The notes under the pieces were generated by a model, which was given only the letters and a program-made list of their open reading frames with translations, had not been told where the DNA came from and ran no database searches. A stretch of DNA of 55,611 nt from a virus (Duplodnaviria; Heunggongvirae; Uroviricota; Caudoviricetes), in the IMG/VR virus record IMGVR_UViG_2778261256_000006, positions 1 to 55,611 of that record. One strand, 5' to 3'. Positions 25,024-33,094 of the stretch are shown one piece after another (positions within the stretch are counted from its first letter, which is position 1; each line of letters begins with the position of its first letter). A program made the translations under genes and the position numbers.

Positions 25024-25650
25024 ATGGCGGGAATAATTACCTGGAAAGTTGATATCATATACCCGCTTGTATTTCAAAATGGAATGGATGTAATGGAAAT
25101 CGATACTTTAGAAAAAAAATCAGTTAAAAACCTCTACGCGTGGCTTATAGCAATACTGCCGTTTGTTGTCAGCGTCCCCCCTGCTGAGTACGACAATTAC
25201 GTTATGGTGATTTCGTTCGTCATTGGGCTTGGACTGCTGGTCGCCGATCGCATGAATTTGACTGAGGCAGGCTATGAGCCACCATCATTCTTATGTGGGT
25301 TCTTTATCCCCCCTGTGTATCTCTGGAAACGAGCGACGGTTCTTGGAAGTAACCGACTGCTGTTTATCGTATGGATTGTTGCCTTTGCTGCATCATTTTT
25401 CGTGTATAGCTTCAACGCAGATTCAGCGCTTGAAGAAGCTGCTTGCCCTATAGTTACCACTATTCTGAAAGAAAATAACGGTTCAGAAGCATCTAAATGC
25501 ATGAAGGTAACAATTCAGGACAAAGTGACGGACAAGTTCTACAAAGCCACGGCTACACTGGATAACGGTAATGACATTAACATCACTATCGAAATGATCG
25601 GTGACGAGAATTTCTACGTTCGCGTGCCTAATTACTACCTAAACGACTAA
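25024..25650 (+). CDS. membrane protein (multiple TM segments)
   Basis: Hydrophobic segments (LIAILPFVVSV, MVISFVIGLGLLVA, LLFIVWIVAFAASFFVY). Confidence 0.5.
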   Translation: MAGIITWKVDIIYPLVFQNGMDVMEIDTLEKKSVKNLYAWLIAILPFVVSVPPAEYDNYVMVISFVIGLGLLVADRMNLTEAGYEPPSFLCGFFIPPVYLWKRATVLGSNRLLFIVWIVAFAASFFVYSFNADSALEEAACPIVTTILKENNGSEASKCMKVTIQDKVTDKFYKATATLDNGNDINITIEMIGDENFYVRVPNYYLND

Positions 25651-27150
25651 CGGCTGCAACTCGTTGACATTGGCGGTCACAAATTGAGGATTTCTATAAG
25701 AGTCCGTTGATCGCCACTTCCCCCACCTCTCCAACCTACCCCAGCCCAGGGGTGACAAGGCATTTAAGCCAATTACACCCATAAGAAAACAAATAAATAA
25801 CACGTCAACGAAAAGTCAACGCTTTCCTCTGATTTGGTCTAAAAAGTTGACGTTTTCGCAAGCCATCTCTTATACCCAAAATCCTGCGCACCAGAATCCA
25901 TCTCCCTGCGACCAAAACGTCAAAAACGACTCGTGATATCACTCAAAAACAGAAGCGCTCAGAAGCGCTCCCGTTGCGTTATATTGGGCATCTAAACAAG
26001 TTGTTTTCAGGAATAAGAAAACAAGTTAACAACCCCCACAGGAAACCCAGAGACGCCATTACCCACAATCCCGGAAACACCCACCTCTTCCTGTCAGACT
26101 ACCGAAAAGACCCACCTCATTGCCCCAGGCTACAGACCACCCACCTAATATTCCCAGGCAACCGAGAACGCGGTTCGCACGCGCAAACCCCGATACGTCA
26201 TTACCCAATACACGGAGAAGAACAGCCAGAACGAAACCCCGGACAAACCCAGACAAGAACAGGAGCCGTCACAATCTCGTTTACCCACCATTACCCCGAA
26301 AGAGAGCGCAAATTCCTGAATAGCAGGGAACGCCATTACTTCATATGCGGAGAACAACTAAAGCGCCCTACTGCCATTACCCACACTTTCATCATTTCAC
26401 GTAAACGAAGAGAAAAGTGCACCTGCCATTACTCCATACACGGAGAAGAACACTCACCAAAACGACGAGAACAACCCAGACGAAAACACAGAGAAGAACC
26501 ACCTCAAGAAGAACGAAACCACATATGCCGGTAGAAAGAACAAACCACCCATTTCACCCAAAGGAATACTCGCCGTATAGAGCGTTATCAGAGGGAAGGT
26601 TTGTGCCCACATAAGAGAGAAAATTCGTGGGAGGTATAAGTGGGAAGGGAAGGAGGGGTATCGCTACTTTCTCCGTATAAATTCAAGCCATAGTTTTCGT
26701 CCCCCGTAACGTCCCTTTCCACCCCTTCGGTCAGCCTTCGGGCCATCCAGGGAAAAGGCTGGAGGTTTTCAGGGAAACGGTGGGAATCCCGCTATACGAA
26801 CCGGGAAAAGCTGGCTGCCGGTCGGGAAACGGGTACATCCCGGTACAGAGCGAGGGACGACTGCGGGAGCGGTGCGGGAAATCTTCGGGAGTGCGCCTTG
26901 CTCTTCGCTCGCCTGAAAATCGCGAGGGAGTGTCGTTCCCTCTCGTGCAGCTGCTGAACTCCATTCTGCCAGACCATCCTCGGGTCTCAAGCGATTTCAG
27001 TAGGTTTTCGGGGAGAAGAAAATTCTGCCCACCAGCCCTGCGGCGCGCGTAGAGCAGAATATCGTAAATACTGGTTCCCGTGTCGTTCCCGGATATTCAC
27101 TGCCCAGCCTGGCTTTCACGACATAAAATCCTTTTTCGCCTTTGTCTTAT
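25650..27150. repeat. 1.5-kb non-coding stretch rich in degenerate short direct repeats
   Basis: No convincing ORF (only low-complexity frames); repeated CGTCAACG/CGTTGAC, CCATTAC..ACGGAGAAGAACA (x3), CCACC-rich and GGGAAAHGG units. Confidence 0.55.
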
Positions 27151-27217
27151 TGCGACAATAACACCAACAAGTAAACAACATGTTTAGACGTTATATAAAC
27201 GAAGTGAGGATGAAGGG

Positions 27218-27436
27218 ATGATTAAGATGCCTGTGACGGTTGAGGTGTGGGGCGTGGATTCCCTGGCTGAGTGTCTGGATGCAGTGGGGCCGGAGTTGTA
27301 CCGCAAGTTGTGGTCGTTCGTCCCGGCAGAAGGGGAATCGCCCAAAGGGAAGGATATCTGGCACCTGCTTAGTGAAGATGAAAAGCGGGAGCTGGTGGAC
27401 GCGGTACACAGCGAGTTCCCGGACGACGAAGATTAA
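27218..27436 (+). CDS. small acidic hypothetical protein
   Basis: 72 aa; preceded by GATAAT plus operator-like palindrome. Confidence 0.5.
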   Translation: MIKMPVTVEVWGVDSLAECLDAVGPELYRKLWSFVPAEGESPKGKDIWHLLSEDEKRELVDAVHSEFPDDED

Positions 27437-27575
27437 GAGTGAGACCACCAGCACGGTGGCTTTTGTCGCTATTAACCTCCGGGGCAGCGCAGCACCGTAA
27501 CGATATACTTTGTGGCCGTTTTCTTACTGGTATTGTTTACGCAATTCAGAAAACAACATGTTTAAGGATTGCTTT

Positions 27576-27905
27576 ATGTTTGCAAATATCGACATCAACC
27601 AAATCAAGAAAATGACTCAAAAAGAGTTTGACCAGTTTTATGAGTTAGAAGGTTGGTCTTCCACGCTGATCAATTCGCGCTGGGTGCTTGAGCTGATGAC
27701 TCGTGATGATGCTCCTGCTTTGATTATTTGCGACATGGGTGAAGATGCTGACTTTATGGATATGAGCGAATTTTGTGTGGACACATACAACCGCAGCCAG
27801 AAGTACTACTTCACATGCGATAGCGAGAATGACGTGATTTCTAAGCTCTATCTTCACCTTGTCCAGCATTGGGACGTGCAGGAATTCCTTGAGTTATTCG
27901 CGTAA
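27576..27905 (+). CDS. small acidic hypothetical protein
   Basis: 109 aa; AAGGA RBS directly after the operator-like palindrome. Confidence 0.5.
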   Translation: MFANIDINQIKKMTQKEFDQFYELEGWSSTLINSRWVLELMTRDDAPALIICDMGEDADFMDMSEFCVDTYNRSQKYYFTCDSENDVISKLYLHLVQHWDVQEFLELFA

Positions 27906-28065
27906 GCCCAACCAAAGCCAGCACCGCCTGCTGGCTTAACTTCTCTGTAGCCGCAGGGCTGAACCACCTTTAGATAATTCATGTGCCTGAGCAATATGCT
28001 TTGTAGCCGTTTTTACACTGGTATTATTTACGCCATTGAGAAAACAATTTGTTTACGGAGTGGTG

Positions 28066-28377
28066 ATGAATACTTCATTGGTGCTGGGTCTTGCTGAAGG
28101 CCAGGAGAGAAAAGAAAAACCAACCTTAATGGGGCATCTCACATTGCTGGATATCGTAGCGAATGGGACTTCTATCCGTCTGTTTCGTGAAAAAGCCATT
28201 ACCTTCGACGCGGGCAATTTTACGCGCTATGTGATGGTAGTTCGTCGCCAGCGTGGAAGAGGGTGGATGTCGGTCCAGAAAATGTGGCCAGAGGACCAGC
28301 TTGAACTGGCGCTGATGGAAGCCAACCGTGTCGCCCAACAAGAGATCCAACGAGCGTCTGTTCAGGCGGTAGCTTAA
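28066..28377 (+). CDS. small hypothetical protein
   Basis: 103 aa; operator-like motif then RBS; followed by a terminator. Confidence 0.5.
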   Translation: MNTSLVLGLAEGQERKEKPTLMGHLTLLDIVANGTSIRLFREKAITFDAGNFTRYVMVVRRQRGRGWMSVQKMWPEDQLELALMEANRVAQQEIQRASVQAVA

Positions 28378-28411
28378 ACATGTGCAAGCAGTAGTTAGTC
28401 GACCCTACGAC

Positions 28412-28440
28412 AGCCCCGTCCATCCTTCGGGGCTTTTTTG
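28412..28440 (+). terminator. rho-independent terminator
   Basis: AGCCCCG..CGGGGCT hairpin followed by TTTTTT. Confidence 0.65.
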
Positions 28441-28498
28441 TATTGTAAGTACTTACTTATGATAATAAAATTAAAAATTAAACACTAAGGAGAGTGAA

Positions 28499-28894
28499 AT
28501 GACCGTTAAACGCGAAAATCTGACCCTGGATATGTATTATGCATCAGAGACGGAAAATGGAGACAAAGTTGCAAAAATTACAATTGTGCTACGCGATAAT
28601 GCCTCCGGCGAAGAAGTTCACACCAGTACCTTAACTCGCACCGGCGAGGCGACAAAGGGGAAATATTCGGTGCGTTACCAAAGCATCAGTAATGCTTCTG
28701 ACCCTTTACTGATAAAACTGGAAACTCATTTCCGTGGCGCGGATCAGACGTTGTTTGAAAATTTGATGAAAAAGGTCGATACGGTTTATACATCGAGTTT
28801 AAATACCAATAGTACCTGGATGGGACAACACGGTCTGCGAATAATCTCCGGCGAAAAGATCGACACCATTGTCCCTGAAAGCGTATTCGCTTAA
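28499..28894 (+). CDS. hypothetical protein
   Basis: 131 aa; preceded by the GTAAGTACTTAC palindrome and AAGGAG RBS. Confidence 0.5.
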   Translation: MTVKRENLTLDMYYASETENGDKVAKITIVLRDNASGEEVHTSTLTRTGEATKGKYSVRYQSISNASDPLLIKLETHFRGADQTLFENLMKKVDTVYTSSLNTNSTWMGQHGLRIISGEKIDTIVPESVFA

Positions 28895-28903
28895 TCCTCT
28901 TTG

Positions 28904-28930
28904 AATGGCGCGTATCCCGCGCCATTTTCT
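28904..28930 (+). terminator. rho-independent terminator
   Basis: AATGGCGCG-TATCC-CGCGCCATT followed by TTCTT. Confidence 0.6.
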
Positions 28931-29011
28931 TATCCCCGATAACAAAATGTTTTCTGCCTTATCTGATTTGTGAAAATGATTTCACTGAAGCAACTTAATA
29001 AGGAAACCATC

Positions 29012-29386
29012 ATGGGACTTGATATCTATATCGAGACGCAGCCTAAAAACGATCTGAATAACGAGGCATCCAGAAAGCAGGTTGCTTACTTCCGTAAGTT
29101 CAATGCGCTCGTTGGGTGGATGGAGCGCAACGTAGGTGAAGTCGAAAATTGTGAGCTTTTAGAATTAACGATGAATGACATTTGTTTTCTGAAGGCTCAT
29201 TTGATGCACATAAACGAAAGTAATTGCGAAGAGTACTTGCCTACCCAGGAAGGTTTTTTCTTCGGCAGTCAGGAGTACGATGAAGGTTACTGGCATGATG
29301 TGGGGGAGTTGAAAGAGATTGTGGAAGATCTGATTAAGAACCACGACTTTCACAATAATAGACTGACCTTCTGCGCCTGGTGGTAA
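29012..29386 (+). CDS. hypothetical protein
   Basis: ORF 28970-29386; ATG 29012 (MGLDIYIE) is the more likely start. Confidence 0.45.
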   Translation: MGLDIYIETQPKNDLNNEASRKQVAYFRKFNALVGWMERNVGEVENCELLELTMNDICFLKAHLMHINESNCEEYLPTQEGFFFGSQEYDEGYWHDVGELKEIVEDLIKNHDFHNNRLTFCAWW

Positions 29387-29722
29387 ATATGGGCGATTTC
29401 AAGAAACGCCTGAAGGAGAGAGCCGAGATGGTCAGAAAGCGAAACGCCTCTTCTGTCATAAGATACGCAAGGCAGTTTAGTCGCAACAACAAATCAGTTG
29501 AGGAAAAGATCCTTAGCGTAATCGGGCGATAATTATTAAGGCCACCAGCATTGGTGGTCTTAAATGACTTTTAATAACCGAAGGTTAGTTTAAAACCTGG
29601 CTATCAACTTCCAGAACCTTTCTTGTGTATTCAGCCTGTATTAACTTCTTTTATGCCTTATCTACACTGCGATAATTACACCAACAAGAAAACAATATGT
29701 TTACGCAGTGAGGATATGCTCA

Positions 29723-30003
29723 TGACTGATTTCACCATTACCCCTAAAGCACAAAATGTATTCCTTGAATCATGGCTGGACTTGCCGGAAACAGAACAGC
29801 AAGAAATGGATCATGTGGAATATGACGAGCAGGTAAGCACGCGATTCTTCCACTTTGAGGGCTGCGTTTACGACATTGCCGACTTCATGCGAGATGACCG
29901 CTTCCCTGAATGGCACGCAAGCTATCCACTAAACGCCTTCGCCATGCTGATGATCCGTGTGGATGATTCAGGGGATACCATCGACATCGGTCTGCTCCAC
30001 TAA
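29723..30003 (+). CDS. small acidic hypothetical protein
   Basis: 93 aa; GATAAT plus operator-like palindrome upstream; followed by a hairpin. Confidence 0.5.
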
Positions 30004-30207
30004 AGAGTAAGGCCACCAATGCTGGTGGCCTTAAATGACCATCCTGTTTCCCGCAGGCTAAAAACACCAACCTCTTACCTCTAGGCAACCGACAAACCCA
30101 CCTGTTCCCGTCCGGCTACCGCAACTTTCCACTTTGACGCCTTATTCGTACAACGATAATTAACACCAACAAGAAAACAATTTGTTATTTACGATAAGGA
30201 ATTAATC

Positions 30208-30690
30208 ATGAATTTTATCGCTACTGTAAACGCACCCGCACATGGCAATATCGCTGTAACGTTCTCTGACATTGAAAAACGAGTACTTGGTGCATGGCGC
30301 GACAATGAGACGGTAGAACTGTCAGCACAAGAAAAATGCATTATTGCACGCGACATCATTGGCAATCGTCGTTACTCGCGGGTATTTGAGAAAGCATATG
30401 TGGTAAATTCTGGATTCGGAACGTTCGTCTTTCCGGTGCGCTCCGGGCGATTCTGCCAGTCCAAGCTGATTGAGTTCGCTACGCAGATTTCTGTCTGGAT
30501 TAAAACTCAATCGTCGTTCAAATTTTCCGACGATGAAGCAGTATCGCAGGGGATGCGGATCGCCAACAATGCAATAAAATACAAAAACATTACGTATGCC
30601 GCTGGCGTTGACACATGGAAACTGTTTTGCGCTAACTTTATGCTGAATGTATACGCAAGCAACCGCATCCACATCCTTGATGGCGTGTAA
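30208..30690 (+). CDS. hypothetical protein
   Basis: 160 aa; GATAAT plus operator-like palindrome upstream; followed by a terminator. Confidence 0.5.
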   Translation: MNFIATVNAPAHGNIAVTFSDIEKRVLGAWRDNETVELSAQEKCIIARDIIGNRRYSRVFEKAYVVNSGFGTFVFPVRSGRFCQSKLIEFATQISVWIKTQSSFKFSDDEAVSQGMRIANNAIKYKNITYAAGVDTWKLFCANFMLNVYASNRIHILDGV

Positions 30691-30696
30691 CTGAGA

Positions 30697-30722
30697 AGAG
30701 GGCCAGAAACGGCCCTTTCTCT
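30697..30722 (+). terminator. rho-independent terminator
   Basis: AGAGGGCC-AGAAAC-GGCCCT followed by TTCT. Confidence 0.55.
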
Positions 30723-31313
30723 ATAGCCACCAGCTGCCGCAGGGAAATTTTCAGAAACGGCGAGGAACGCATTCATGAGCCGACGGGAAACGGCCAAGAT
30801 TTTTTCGGGAAACGGCGGGGGTCGCCTTTATGTAGAAAACTGAGCGGGAGAAACCCGGAATCGCGCCAGAAATTGCGTAGCGGCGCTGGGGTAGCGCTGG
30901 TGGGGTTTCAGCCCCTGGGCCATCCAGATAGCTTTCGCTATGTGATTATGTGAATCCGTGGGTAAATCACTGTAAGCGCGTACACGTTGCCCAACGTGGC
31001 GATCATATGCGAGCGGATACAAAACAACACAAAGAGCCGATCCGCGCCGACAAATAAACGCGGATCACATAGCAAGACTAAAAGCCAATGATTAACCATA
31101 CTCTATAGCGCAATATAACGCGTTTTAAGCGCGTTAATGTGTTAAGTAATGGGTATGTACTGACAAGGATATAAAAGCGCGTCTATGGCGTTATTTTGGT
31201 GCTTATTTTTATGTTGTTGGAGTGAGTTAAAGACAATAAAAAACGCGCCAATGATGGCGCGTTATGGTGGGAGTATTGGAAACGAAAAAAGCGCCCATAG
31301 TGGGCGCTCGATT

Positions 31314-31594: not shown

Positions 31595-32245
31595 TTACGC
31601 TTTGAAAGCATCAGCCAGATAGTTATAAAAATCATTTTTAACGAAGCGATATTGCTGTGATCCGTTTTTCGCTGCACCCATTCCTTTGATTTTTTCGACC
31701 AGTCCCAGACGTTCGCAAAGATTGATAAGCTGGTTGGCTTGAGTGTATCCTGCGTCTAATTTTATTTCGTTGGCTTTTTTCGCTTCATTCATTAAATCGA
31801 AAACAGCGCCATTGGTGAACGTGTCGATCTCGTCGTTAATCATATCGATTAATGCGAATACACGAGATCCGGACATATCAGCGACGGAATAAACACACTT
31901 TCCAGCTTTAATAGATTTAACCAGATAAACCAGTTTTTCGAGTGAATAGCTATTGGTCATAGCTTCACGGAAAAACGCTTCAGGTGCTTGTTTGCTTGCT
32001 TTAATCGCGTAGTAAAAGACACCAGCTAATTTCTCATCATTAACAGCGTTTAAAACGTTGTTGGTGAAGTATGCTAGTTTGGTAGACGCTGCAAGCATGT
32101 TGGCTTTATCCGCTTTTGTGTGCGTACCATTCTGATAATGATTGTTATAAGTCTGAGTAGCGTTGTTGGCTGCAACTTGCAATTCATTAGCGATAACTAC
32201 AGCAGCGTCGATGATGGATTTTTTAGAAATGGTAACGTTAGACAT
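31595..32245 (-). CDS. hypothetical protein (AT-rich islet)
   Basis: 216-aa ORF with strongly AT-rich upstream region (32250-32560); no recognisable motif. Confidence 0.5.
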   Translation of the reverse strand: MSNVTISKKSIIDAAVVIANELQVAANNATQTYNNHYQNGTHTKADKANMLAASTKLAYFTNNVLNAVNDEKLAGVFYYAIKASKQAPEAFFREAMTNSYSLEKLVYLVKSIKAGKCVYSVADMSGSRVFALIDMINDEIDTFTNGAVFDLMNEAKKANEIKLDAGYTQANQLINLCERLGLVEKIKGMGAAKNGSQQYRFVKNDFYNYLADAFKA

Positions 32246-32566: not shown

Positions 32567-33094
32567 TTAAAACGGTAAAATTCGTTCGACCCAATCGAAC
32601 ATGGCGACTGTCTTCCTACCGTCCCCCATGTTGAGTGTGACCTGACAAGCGTCAACGCCTCTTGACACCCCTTCTATTTCACGACCGTCCGCCATGTAGA
32701 CCCTTATAGACTTCTGCATCTCATGAGCCTGGCGACAAATTTTGAAGAAATCACGGCGAGATGGCCGATTGTCCACATAGTCTGGGTGTACCGTTGTCCG
32801 ACCCGTGAAGTCGTGCGCAATGCCTTCTGTCACACCTGATTCAATCGTGCTGATTCGCTCAAGTGGGAGCCTTATACGATTTTCTTTGTCGAACGGGGCA
32901 GGGCAAAGGTCGACTTTGTTGCGAGACGACATGAGACCCTGAACGTACATGCAGAACACCTGACCATCTTCCATCGTGACCCTTACAGGAATGAGATACT
33001 TACGCCAGAACATCAGCGCCTTCTCCACGTTGGTGTAATCGCGCGGCCAGACTTCTGCAGGAATCCCGTAGGTGATGTCAGTAATATTCGTCAT
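32567..33094 (-). CDS. hypothetical protein with two similar internal segments
   Basis: Last gene of the helicase operon; start may be 33136 or 33094. Confidence 0.45.
   Translation of the reverse strand: MTNITDITYGIPAEVWPRDYTNVEKALMFWRKYLIPVRVTMEDGQVFCMYVQGLMSSRNKVDLCPAPFDKENRIRLPLERISTIESGVTEGIAHDFTGRTTVHPDYVDNRPSRRDFFKICRQAHEMQKSIRVYMADGREIEGVSRGVDACQVTLNMGDGRKTVAMFDWVERILPF

Follow-up and report, generated by a model that had tools for sequence, protein, structure and literature searches.

The locus raised the question of whether two repeat-rich stretches that flank an array of small genes are related to each other, and of what they may do for the element that carries them. The sequence analysed (55,611 nt in full, hereafter the window) is that of an SSU5/pHCM2-type (SSU5-like) phage-plasmid. 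Such elements are common in clinical Enterobacteriaceae, with resistance and virulence cargo, and the control of their lysogeny, early genes and maintenance is essentially unstudied. No paper describing these regions was found in a literature search.

Layout of the two modules

A sequence-only reading had described 30040-31000 as a second non-coding, repeat-rich stretch sharing its motifs with 25650-27150. The sharing is real, whereas the stretch is not wholly non-coding: it contains a 160-aa gene at 30208-30690, which is a real gene, as indicated by a phrog_1641 match and by strong codon periodicity of its substitutions (p=1.7e-6). When the two regions were aligned, 26074-26133 joined 30061-30119 with a score of 43, against 23.0 +/- 2.4 in 200 shuffles (maximum 31). 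Since this exceeds every shuffle, the local similarity is significant. The CAGGCTA..ACCCACC-type units seen earlier in both regions were found to form one family, the C/A units (~30 nt, C/A-rich, ACCCACCT..CAGGCTACCGA), with three copies at 26074-26167 and two at 30061-30124. The motif GGGAAAHGG is common to both regions as proposed (26750, 26772, 26824, 30785 and 30807, all on the + strand), and G units (MGGGAAAMGGC) occupy 26750-26884 and 30742-30858. Exactly two occurrences of GGGCCATCCAG were found, one in each region, the first at 26740 instead of 26742 and the other at 30917; it precedes the G units in module A and follows them in module B. The shared motifs do not extend throughout 30040-31000, being limited to two short flanks, 30040-30130 and 30723-30930.

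Both modules, A and B, have the same layout, in which C/A units are followed by ~0.7 kb of cargo and then by G units. The left arm consists of 2-4 tandem C/A units (consensus ACCCACCTnTTnCCnnnAGGCWAC), and the right arm, ~0.7 kb further right, of 4-12 G units (consensus GCCnnMGGGAAAMGGC). The distance between the arms was ~680-720 bp in six modules despite their differing cargo. The two G-unit clusters are 4.0 kb apart in the window and 1.5-4.2 kb apart among relatives, and the modules of SSU5 map to 90.4-95.6 kb of its complete 103-kb genome. As had been noticed, A and B bracket the small-gene array, which is made up of small cassettes with a promoter and a terminator each. On the basis of this bracketing and of the two motif families in the same order, a boundary-like pair of paralogues is a fair description, so that the suggested "duplicated or boundary structure" stands in this form. 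It is not a simple sequence duplication, as only the short units are alike. The material between the arms is unrelated (non-coding in A, the 160-aa gene in B) and displayed no tblastn similarity. From their sequence, A and B appear to be paralogous cis-acting modules of the phage-plasmid. The features are collected in Table 1.

Table 1. Positions of the elements of modules A and B, of the bracketed array and of the two adjoining genes in the window
Feature	Position	Strand	Remarks
Module A, upstream boxes	25662-25860	+	TTGACATTGGCGGTCAC..TTTCTATAAGAGTCCGTTGATCGCC, AAGAAAACAAATAAATAAC, inverted GTCAACG..AAAAAGTTGACG pair; >90% conserved in 10 relatives
Module A, cassette-type promoter/operator-like element	25960-26030	+	TTGCGTTATAT; palindrome TAAACAAGTTGTTTTC (core 25994-26006); second AAGAAAACAA box
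Module A, A/C-rich non-coding tract	26031-26560	+	A 37%, C 34%, G 17%, T 13%
Module A, left arm	26074-26167	+	three tandem C/A units of ~30 nt (..ACCCACCT-N12-16-CAGGCTACCGAAA..); family D1; copies in all relatives
Module A, three Y units	26199, 26334, 26427 (26199-26452)	+	CATTACCCAATACACGGAGAAGAACA; families D7/D8
Module A, conserved G-rich block	26630-26689	+	GGAGGTATAAGTGGGAAGGGAAGGAGGGGTATCGCTACTTTCTCCGTATAAATTCAAGCC; contains the inverted partner of the Y units; many invariant or near-invariant columns
Module A, right arm	26740-26895	+	GGGCCATCCAG, then G units at 26750, 26772, 26803, 26824 and 26876, with CGGGAG/GAGGGA variants
Bracketed array	27130-30034	+	six annotated genes (72, 109, 103, 131, 124, 99 aa) in about five mini-cassettes
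Module B, left arm	30036-30130	+	GTTTCCCGCAGGCT and two C/A units; the terminator of the previous cassette (30008-30034) precedes them and the promoter for the 160-aa gene follows
Module B, cargo	30132-30722	+	cassette promoter/operator, 160-aa gene (30208-30690), intrinsic terminator (30700-30722)
Module B, right arm	30723-30930	+	CCACCAGC; G units at 30742 (GGGAAATTT), 30752 (CAGAAACGG), 30785, 30807 and 30846 (CGGGAGAAACCCGG)
Module B, right arm, further elements	30896, 30917	+	Chi site (30896), GGGCCATCCAG (30917)
Rest of the convergent intergenic region	30940-31310		palindromes CACGTTGCCCAACGTG, GATCCGCG..CGCGGATC; repeated A(A/C)GCGCG
Two strong terminators	31242-31263, 31289-31309	-	
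p216	31595-32245	-	phrog_1513; predicted N-terminal helical hairpin/bundle and C-terminal winged helix; sigma-70-like promoter of its own, read from sequence
FljA-family protein	32567-33094	-	175 aa; PF03614, E=1e-94, full-length homologue
G dyad (paired G units)			CAGGGAAAAGGCTGGAGGTTTTCAGGGAAACGG
C/A unit, example			ACCCACCTCTTTCCCGTCGGCAAACC
G-unit motif as single-stranded RNA			GGGAAACGG

In the Xenorhabdus, Pectobacterium and Providencia lineages, which give no blastn alignment to the window, the upstream boxes of module A could be recognised. The promoter/operator-like element belongs, with the cassette promoters, to repeat families D2/D4 and inverted pairs I14/I15 and is conserved in relatives; it would be expected to act as a promoter. 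The A/C bias of the tract recurs in Klebsiella, Xenorhabdus and Pectobacterium lineages. In all lineages a sense-strand tract of 250-600 nt is poor in G and T, and in the A+T-rich ones it contains 45-48% A and merely 23-25% C. Only 4 start-like triplets occur in the tract of the window, about 25 being expected (a five-fold depletion). Each Y unit is complementary to TTCTCCGTATA at 26669-26679 (11 nt, 91%), and the surrounding G-rich block has a recognisable counterpart in Xenorhabdus locus L029 (GGAGGGAGCGCGTACTTTTCCCGTATTTTTTCAATCC). A 44-nt unit present in the right arm of SSU5 and several relatives (alignment columns 1210-1253) is missing from the window.

No codon periodicity was detected in region A, where substitutions by position were 56/51/48 and 55/58/61 (p=0.73 and 0.86), while the neighbouring genes gave p=1.7e-6 and 2e-20 in the same analysis. 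In the relatives examined, PGAP annotates region A as a gap without CDS or with isolated, inconsistent hypothetical ORFs. A pseudogene or decayed copy of the 160-aa gene was rejected on the same lack of periodicity and on a tblastn search of all array proteins against A and B, which returned nothing at E<0.3. One Klebsiella hybrid plasmid carries the left half of region A alone, a mosaic remnant.

Most cassettes of the array possess their own TGnGATAAT -10 element, a 5'UTR box AAGAAAACAA(nnTGTTT) and a hairpin terminator (families D2-D6 and D10). A 50-aa ORF lies immediately 3' of the 124-aa gene, and gene content and array length differ among relatives. In E. coli LF82, the nearby Cyrano genes were not among the highly expressed ones.

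Other lineages also have C/A units at the position of module B, right after the T-run of a terminator: Pectobacterium and Providencia have two of them, and the two Xenorhabdus loci one or two. The terminator behind the 160-aa gene has an 11-pair stem maintained through GC/CG/AU compensatory changes in 8 lineages and followed by a T-tract, as in an intrinsic terminator. The G cluster is located directly 3' of it in every lineage examined. Both arms of module B thus lie outside the transcription unit predicted from the sequence, and the predicted terminators shield region B from transcription on both sides. The remainder of the convergent intergenic region (30940-31310) is conserved within the SSU5 group alone, and not in Pectobacterium. 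Chi sites are very dense between the two clusters, and genes for a UvsW-type helicase and RNase H are located nearby.

Motif statistics and conservation

The two motif families are confined to the two loci. GGGAAAHGG was found 6 times in the window against 1.4 expected, five of these at the two loci and on the + strand; for GGGCCATCCAG the 2 matches compare with 0.02 expected, and ACCCACCT occurs at the two loci only. The enrichment concerns the longer motif only; the hexamer GGGAAA by itself was found 27 times in the window against 30 expected. In the 103-kb SSU5 genome, all 7 matches to GGGAAAHGG and all 4 to ACCCACCT fall at the two homologous loci and on one strand. These strict patterns constitute a sequence signature that could help in typing such plasmids.

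The C/A units (repeat family D1) are contiguous, with a spacing of 29-31 nt, and 65-79% alike; the G units are short (9-12 nt) with uneven gaps of 10-40 nt. A CRISPR array was discarded on these grounds. Among 120 distinct G sites from SSU5-group, Xenorhabdus and Pectobacterium sequences, MGGGAAAMGGC was constant and the flanks varied, the core having been prescribed by the pattern with which the sites were retrieved. Motif columns were more conserved than spacer columns in both right arms, with identities of 94% versus 86% in module B and 86% versus 75% in module A. The spacing of paired G units differs between lineages (SSU5 group, 21-22 nt; L023, 24 nt; Xenorhabdus, 17 nt).

The reverse complement of a C/A unit resembles a G unit (GCCnnCGGGAA..AGGTGGG). 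An inverted repeat between the arms was perfect over 16 nt in Xenorhabdus locus L026, spanned 13 and 17 nt in L029 and reached 14 nt at 86% in the window. The inverted similarity was significant in the two Xenorhabdus loci, where 0/500 and 1/500 shuffles reached the score. It was marginal in module B of the window (24/500) and of Pectobacterium (30/500) and not significant in 7 other modules; in SSU5 and Klebsiella the shuffle test detected no such relation. In 8 of the 11 modules, the G-unit core (CGGGAA-like) forms the centre of the best inverted matches and is usually flanked by GCC or CCG.

In PLSDB, region A was conserved in 859 plasmids. Xenorhabdus locus L029, the Pectobacterium plasmid Drgb1 and a divergent Klebsiella lineage have the two arms of each module; Providencia has module B and, of module A, the left part, and L026 has module B alone. 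The distant lineages share no alignable DNA with the window and their p216 is 30-35% identical, and a C/A unit stretch of 32 nt is still 90.6% identical between Pectobacterium and E. coli phage-plasmids. A search of 5426 E. coli genomes with the C/A unit gave 229 matches, all on plasmids. An att-like site or host target was discarded, with 0 chromosomal matches in these genomes. The arrays always adjoin the same two co-conserved genes, p216 and the gene for the FljA-family protein.

The arrays are the most strongly conserved non-coding sequences found in this family. Judged from these sequence comparisons, the arrangement is ancient and under selection throughout the SSU5 supergroup (here Escherichia, Salmonella, Klebsiella, Yersinia pestis, Xenorhabdus, Providencia and Pectobacterium) and is not a recent duplication in this genome. 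Since a 32-nt unit remains ~90% identical where the proteins are ~30% identical, the arrays appear to mark a core cis-acting function. For the same reason, the motifs probably serve an uncharacterised regulator, encoded by the plasmid, as docking sites.

Candidate partners and possible functions

Two neighbouring proteins are candidates for this role. p216 has no Pfam match, is about 95% identical across genera and was found solely on phage-plasmids of about 100-110 kb. Its AlphaFold2 model (pLDDT 88) displayed an H-b-H-H-b-b topology at residues 127-201, and the putative recognition helix (TQANQLINLCER) is conserved in homologues of 30-33% identity. On this model, p216 is a candidate DNA-binding partner of the arrays. 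The FljA-family protein was modelled by AlphaFold2 as two helix-plus-five-strand repeats, and nearly all top PDB matches of this model in Foldseek were Hfq (target TM-score 0.7-0.86). The modelled tandem Hfq/Sm fold makes the protein a candidate RNA-binding partner. The founder of the family, FljA, is described as a post-transcriptional repressor acting on fliC mRNA (PMC2652032; bioRxiv 10.1101/2025.10.27.684867). A homologue adjoins p216 in every lineage, barely detectable in L143, and a profile search of genome contigs retrieved only close SSU5-like relatives. Presence and absence do not separate the two proteins, because both occur in every lineage found, the most divergent included. The arrays offer testable targets, with two motif families and two candidate partners, one a predicted DNA binder and the other a predicted RNA binder.

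The explanation that we tentatively favour, as a good possibility still somewhat short of a probable one, is that the arms are arrays of DNA binding sites, probably for p216, which form boundary or insulator complexes. The arms would act as double-stranded DNA, presenting asymmetric sites to a sequence-specific protein encoded by the phage-plasmid. The best candidate binder would be the adjacent p216, with its predicted coiled-coil and winged-helix parts, co-conserved with the arrays in every lineage. Arm-bound molecules, joined via the coiled coil, could build nucleoprotein complexes that act as boundaries, either as loops or as roadblocks, at each end of the cassette array and on either side of its last cassette. 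Early or accessory cassettes, each under its own repression, would thereby be insulated from read-through transcription as well as from one another. In this scheme we infer the binder, DNA as its target and insulation or looping as the outcome.

Several observations argue for DNA binding-site arrays. The motifs are exclusive to two loci and consistent in strand, and they are under selection, as judged from the 859 plasmids and from the motif columns that exceed the spacers. The arms persist in lineages without alignable DNA, at a distance held despite differing cargo. In module B they lie outside the predicted transcription unit, with the C/A units between terminator and promoter. Region A has no codon periodicity, and neither an RNA-structure signal nor an Rfam match was obtained. 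The likeness of the reverse-complemented C/A unit to the G unit would be natural for DNA, where sites may occur in both orientations, and the predicted winged helix of p216 retains its putative recognition helix. Other observations count against it. At 17, 21-22 or 24 nt the G units are not helically phased, unlike the usual cooperative DNA sites, and the inverted arm relation is significant in two Xenorhabdus loci only. The promoter-like start of module A and its G/T-poor sense tract look like a constraint on RNA, and linkage to the arrays is as tight for the tandem-Sm FljA homologue as for p216.

These last points lead to an account in terms of RNA, the main rival, which we regard as possible and on balance doubtful. 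Region A would give rise to a long non-coding RNA or a leader, read-through would extend transcripts into both flanks of module B (5' and 3'), and the G units would be single-stranded motifs bound by the FljA-family protein. The RNA could be a decoy or sponge; alternatively, it could provide a platform that governs the translation or stability of cassette mRNAs or of host mRNAs such as fliC, with the A/C tract as an unstructured landing pad. The two modelled Hfq-like Sm domains of the PF03614 neighbour and the action of the founder on an mRNA favour this account. So do the position of all motif copies on the sense strand, the cassette-type promoter-like element at the start of region A, the depletion of G/T in every lineage and the five-fold depletion of start triplets; the variable unit spacing (17, 22, 24 nt) suits flexible RNA. 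A 12-mer, TGAGCCGACGGG, is common to one G unit and the E. coli fliC 5'UTR, being the longest exact match of this UTR in the window, and Pectobacterium variants such as GGTGGAAAG resemble GGGUGGAAACCC of fliC.

The fliC likeness, however, is not above chance, as the Smith-Waterman score of the E. coli K-12 leader (24, against 24.9 +/- 2.2) was reached by 72/100 shuffled UTRs; the 12-mer is not conserved in the Salmonella or Klebsiella relatives, and mimicry of the leader was rejected. The module B arms lie outside the predicted transcription unit, and in every lineage the G cluster is behind a terminator with compensatory support. The motif adjoins no start codon and is thus not a translational operator, and the A-rich 5'UTR box of the cassettes, AAGAAAACAA, would be an equal or better target for an Hfq-like protein. 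Nothing in the window matched Rfam at the gathering threshold, and at E<=1 only two sub-threshold matches appeared, both on the terminators at 31234-31308. Three folds compared with shuffled controls (z +1.29, -0.03 and +0.36) revealed no stable structure in either region. RNAalifold on 8 lineages gave clear compensatory support for the terminator hairpin only, and none in the G cluster. For RNA duplexes between left and right arms, the SSU5 group gave energies no better than those of shuffled sequences (z from -0.56 to +0.64), and Xenorhabdus only a modest advantage (z about -2.4).

A broader version, which we consider unlikely, would unite the arrays, p216 and the tandem-Sm FljA homologue in one unrecognised regulatory module universal to SSU5-supergroup phage-plasmids. 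The non-coding RNA and read-through transcripts would display GGGAAAMGG and titrate or recruit the Hfq-like ring protein. If true, this would be a protein-sponge or riboregulatory switch of the phage-plasmid for early-cassette expression and possibly for host flagellin, and any such role of the G units in RNA would reveal the RNA recognition motif of the whole FljA family.

A replication element is distinctly improbable. In this case the clusters would be a bipartite lytic origin with enhancer (P4 ori/crr-like), or polar fork barriers (Ter-like, in opposite orientation), recognised by p216 for the DnaB-like helicase, primase and polymerase of the phage. Two iteron-like clusters in cis, a few kb apart (26.75 and 30.78 kb; 4.0 kb) as in a bipartite origin of P4 type, do adjoin a predicted winged-helix protein, and the literature searched does not mention a lytic origin for this family. 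The apparent opposed orientation of the arms, the shielding of region B from transcription on both sides, the dense Chi sites between the clusters and the UvsW-type helicase and RNase H genes also fit. The space between the arms, on the other hand, is a gene or a tract of normal G+C and not an A+T-rich unwinding element, and relatives have A and B anywhere from 1.5 to 4.2 kb apart. The p216 model lacks the two-winged-helix architecture of iteron Rep proteins, and its gene has an apparently unregulated sigma-70-like promoter in a regulatory neighbourhood, while the replication module is at 34-55 kb of SSU5. In SSU5, a turn of the cumulative GC skew at 89-95 kb could point to an origin, but it coincides with the switch in gene orientation and is therefore uninformative as a marker of origin or terminus.

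It is very improbable that composition alone accounts for the repeats. The C-rich, G-poor tract would be a strong Rho-loading (rut) site at which untranslated read-through is stopped, R-loops or pausing would be favoured by the G-cluster half (with GGGAAGGGAAGGAGGGG and its GGGAAA repeats), and the units would be by-products. The tract, with 34% C and 17% G over 530 nt, is untranslated and unstructured and retains its composition, not its sequence, across lineages. The C/A units, in turn, lie right behind intrinsic terminators, a frequent place of back-up Rho terminators. Unit conservation nevertheless far exceeds composition, as in the 32-nt match between Pectobacterium and E. coli, and MGGGAAAMGGC is constant over the 120 sites, with the reservation given above on how they were collected. 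In A+T-rich lineages, moreover, the tract is rich in A and not in C.

Inert remains of a decayed duplication, of mobile-element ends or of pseudogenes without present function are hardly credible: the modules do look like paralogues with unrelated cargo and vary in unit copy number (the 44-nt unit), but region A persists in 859 plasmids and the modules in lineages with ~30%-identical proteins, motifs are more conserved than spacers, synteny is fixed, no array protein is similar and the genome holds no further copies.

Comparison with known systems

In the satellite phage-plasmid P4, type I iterons in ori and crr, about 4.5 kb apart, are bound by the winged-helix domain of the alpha protein. 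The present element resembles it in being a phage-plasmid with two direct-repeat clusters several kb apart, genes between them and a predicted winged-helix protein nearby. The sequences are unrelated, however, and no primase-helicase is fused to the winged helix here. Furthermore, the cluster distance varies and each cluster is two-armed, with two kinds of unit.

Iterons flanking repA (P1 oriR/incA; RepFIB) are similar as direct repeats of 9-30 nt in one orientation, variable in copy number and bracketing genes. In contrast, no rep gene lies between the present arrays, and the true RepA iterons of this plasmid family are unrelated. They consist of 21-nt repeats of (C)TCTCTACAGTGGATAG type on the flanks of repA, about 30 kb from the arrays. 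In SSU5, the surroundings of repA (SSU5_069, IncFIB(pHCM2) replicon, 59.4-60.5 kb, not adjacent to the modules) carry >20 CTCTCTACAGTGGATAG-type repeats with nothing in common with GGGAAAMGG or ACCCACCT, and RepA iterons were discarded as an identity for the arrays.

The sponge RNAs CsrB/CsrC and RsmY/Z are comparable in their many close, GGA-containing purine motifs on one strand of a non-coding region, by a gene for an RNA-binding protein (here predicted). GGA-containing motifs are indeed frequent in the arrays, but presentation in hairpin loops was found neither in the folds nor in the 8-lineage alignment. The conserved core is a 12-nt GGGAAAMGGC and not ANGGA, Rfam gave no match, and the module B cluster is behind a terminator. 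With FljA-fliC of Salmonella flagellar phase variation, the PF03614 neighbour is shared, and one G unit holds TGAGCCGACGGG and the GAAAC element of the fliC leader. The difference is that this match is neither significant nor conserved, the motifs stand in arrays far from any start codon, and non-motile Klebsiella also carries the array system.

Tus-Ter and the winged-helix dimer RTP of Bacillus are polar barriers to replication or transcription. They resemble the present system in asymmetric sites in two (here apparently) opposed groups, in a small winged-helix protein (here predicted) with a helical dimerisation element, and in converging transcription. They differ in that p216 is related to Tus or RTP neither by sequence nor by any detectable similarity of fold, and in that the inverted arm relation is weakly supported here. 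The sopC-like sites of N15 and the P1 C1 operators are single palindromes scattered over the genome. As here, these are cis sites in the phage early region for a maintenance or immunity protein, away from its gene. The motifs of the SSU5-like element, in contrast, are confined to two multi-copy arrays, and its own scattered palindrome is a different sequence, AAACAA(N1-3)TGTTT.

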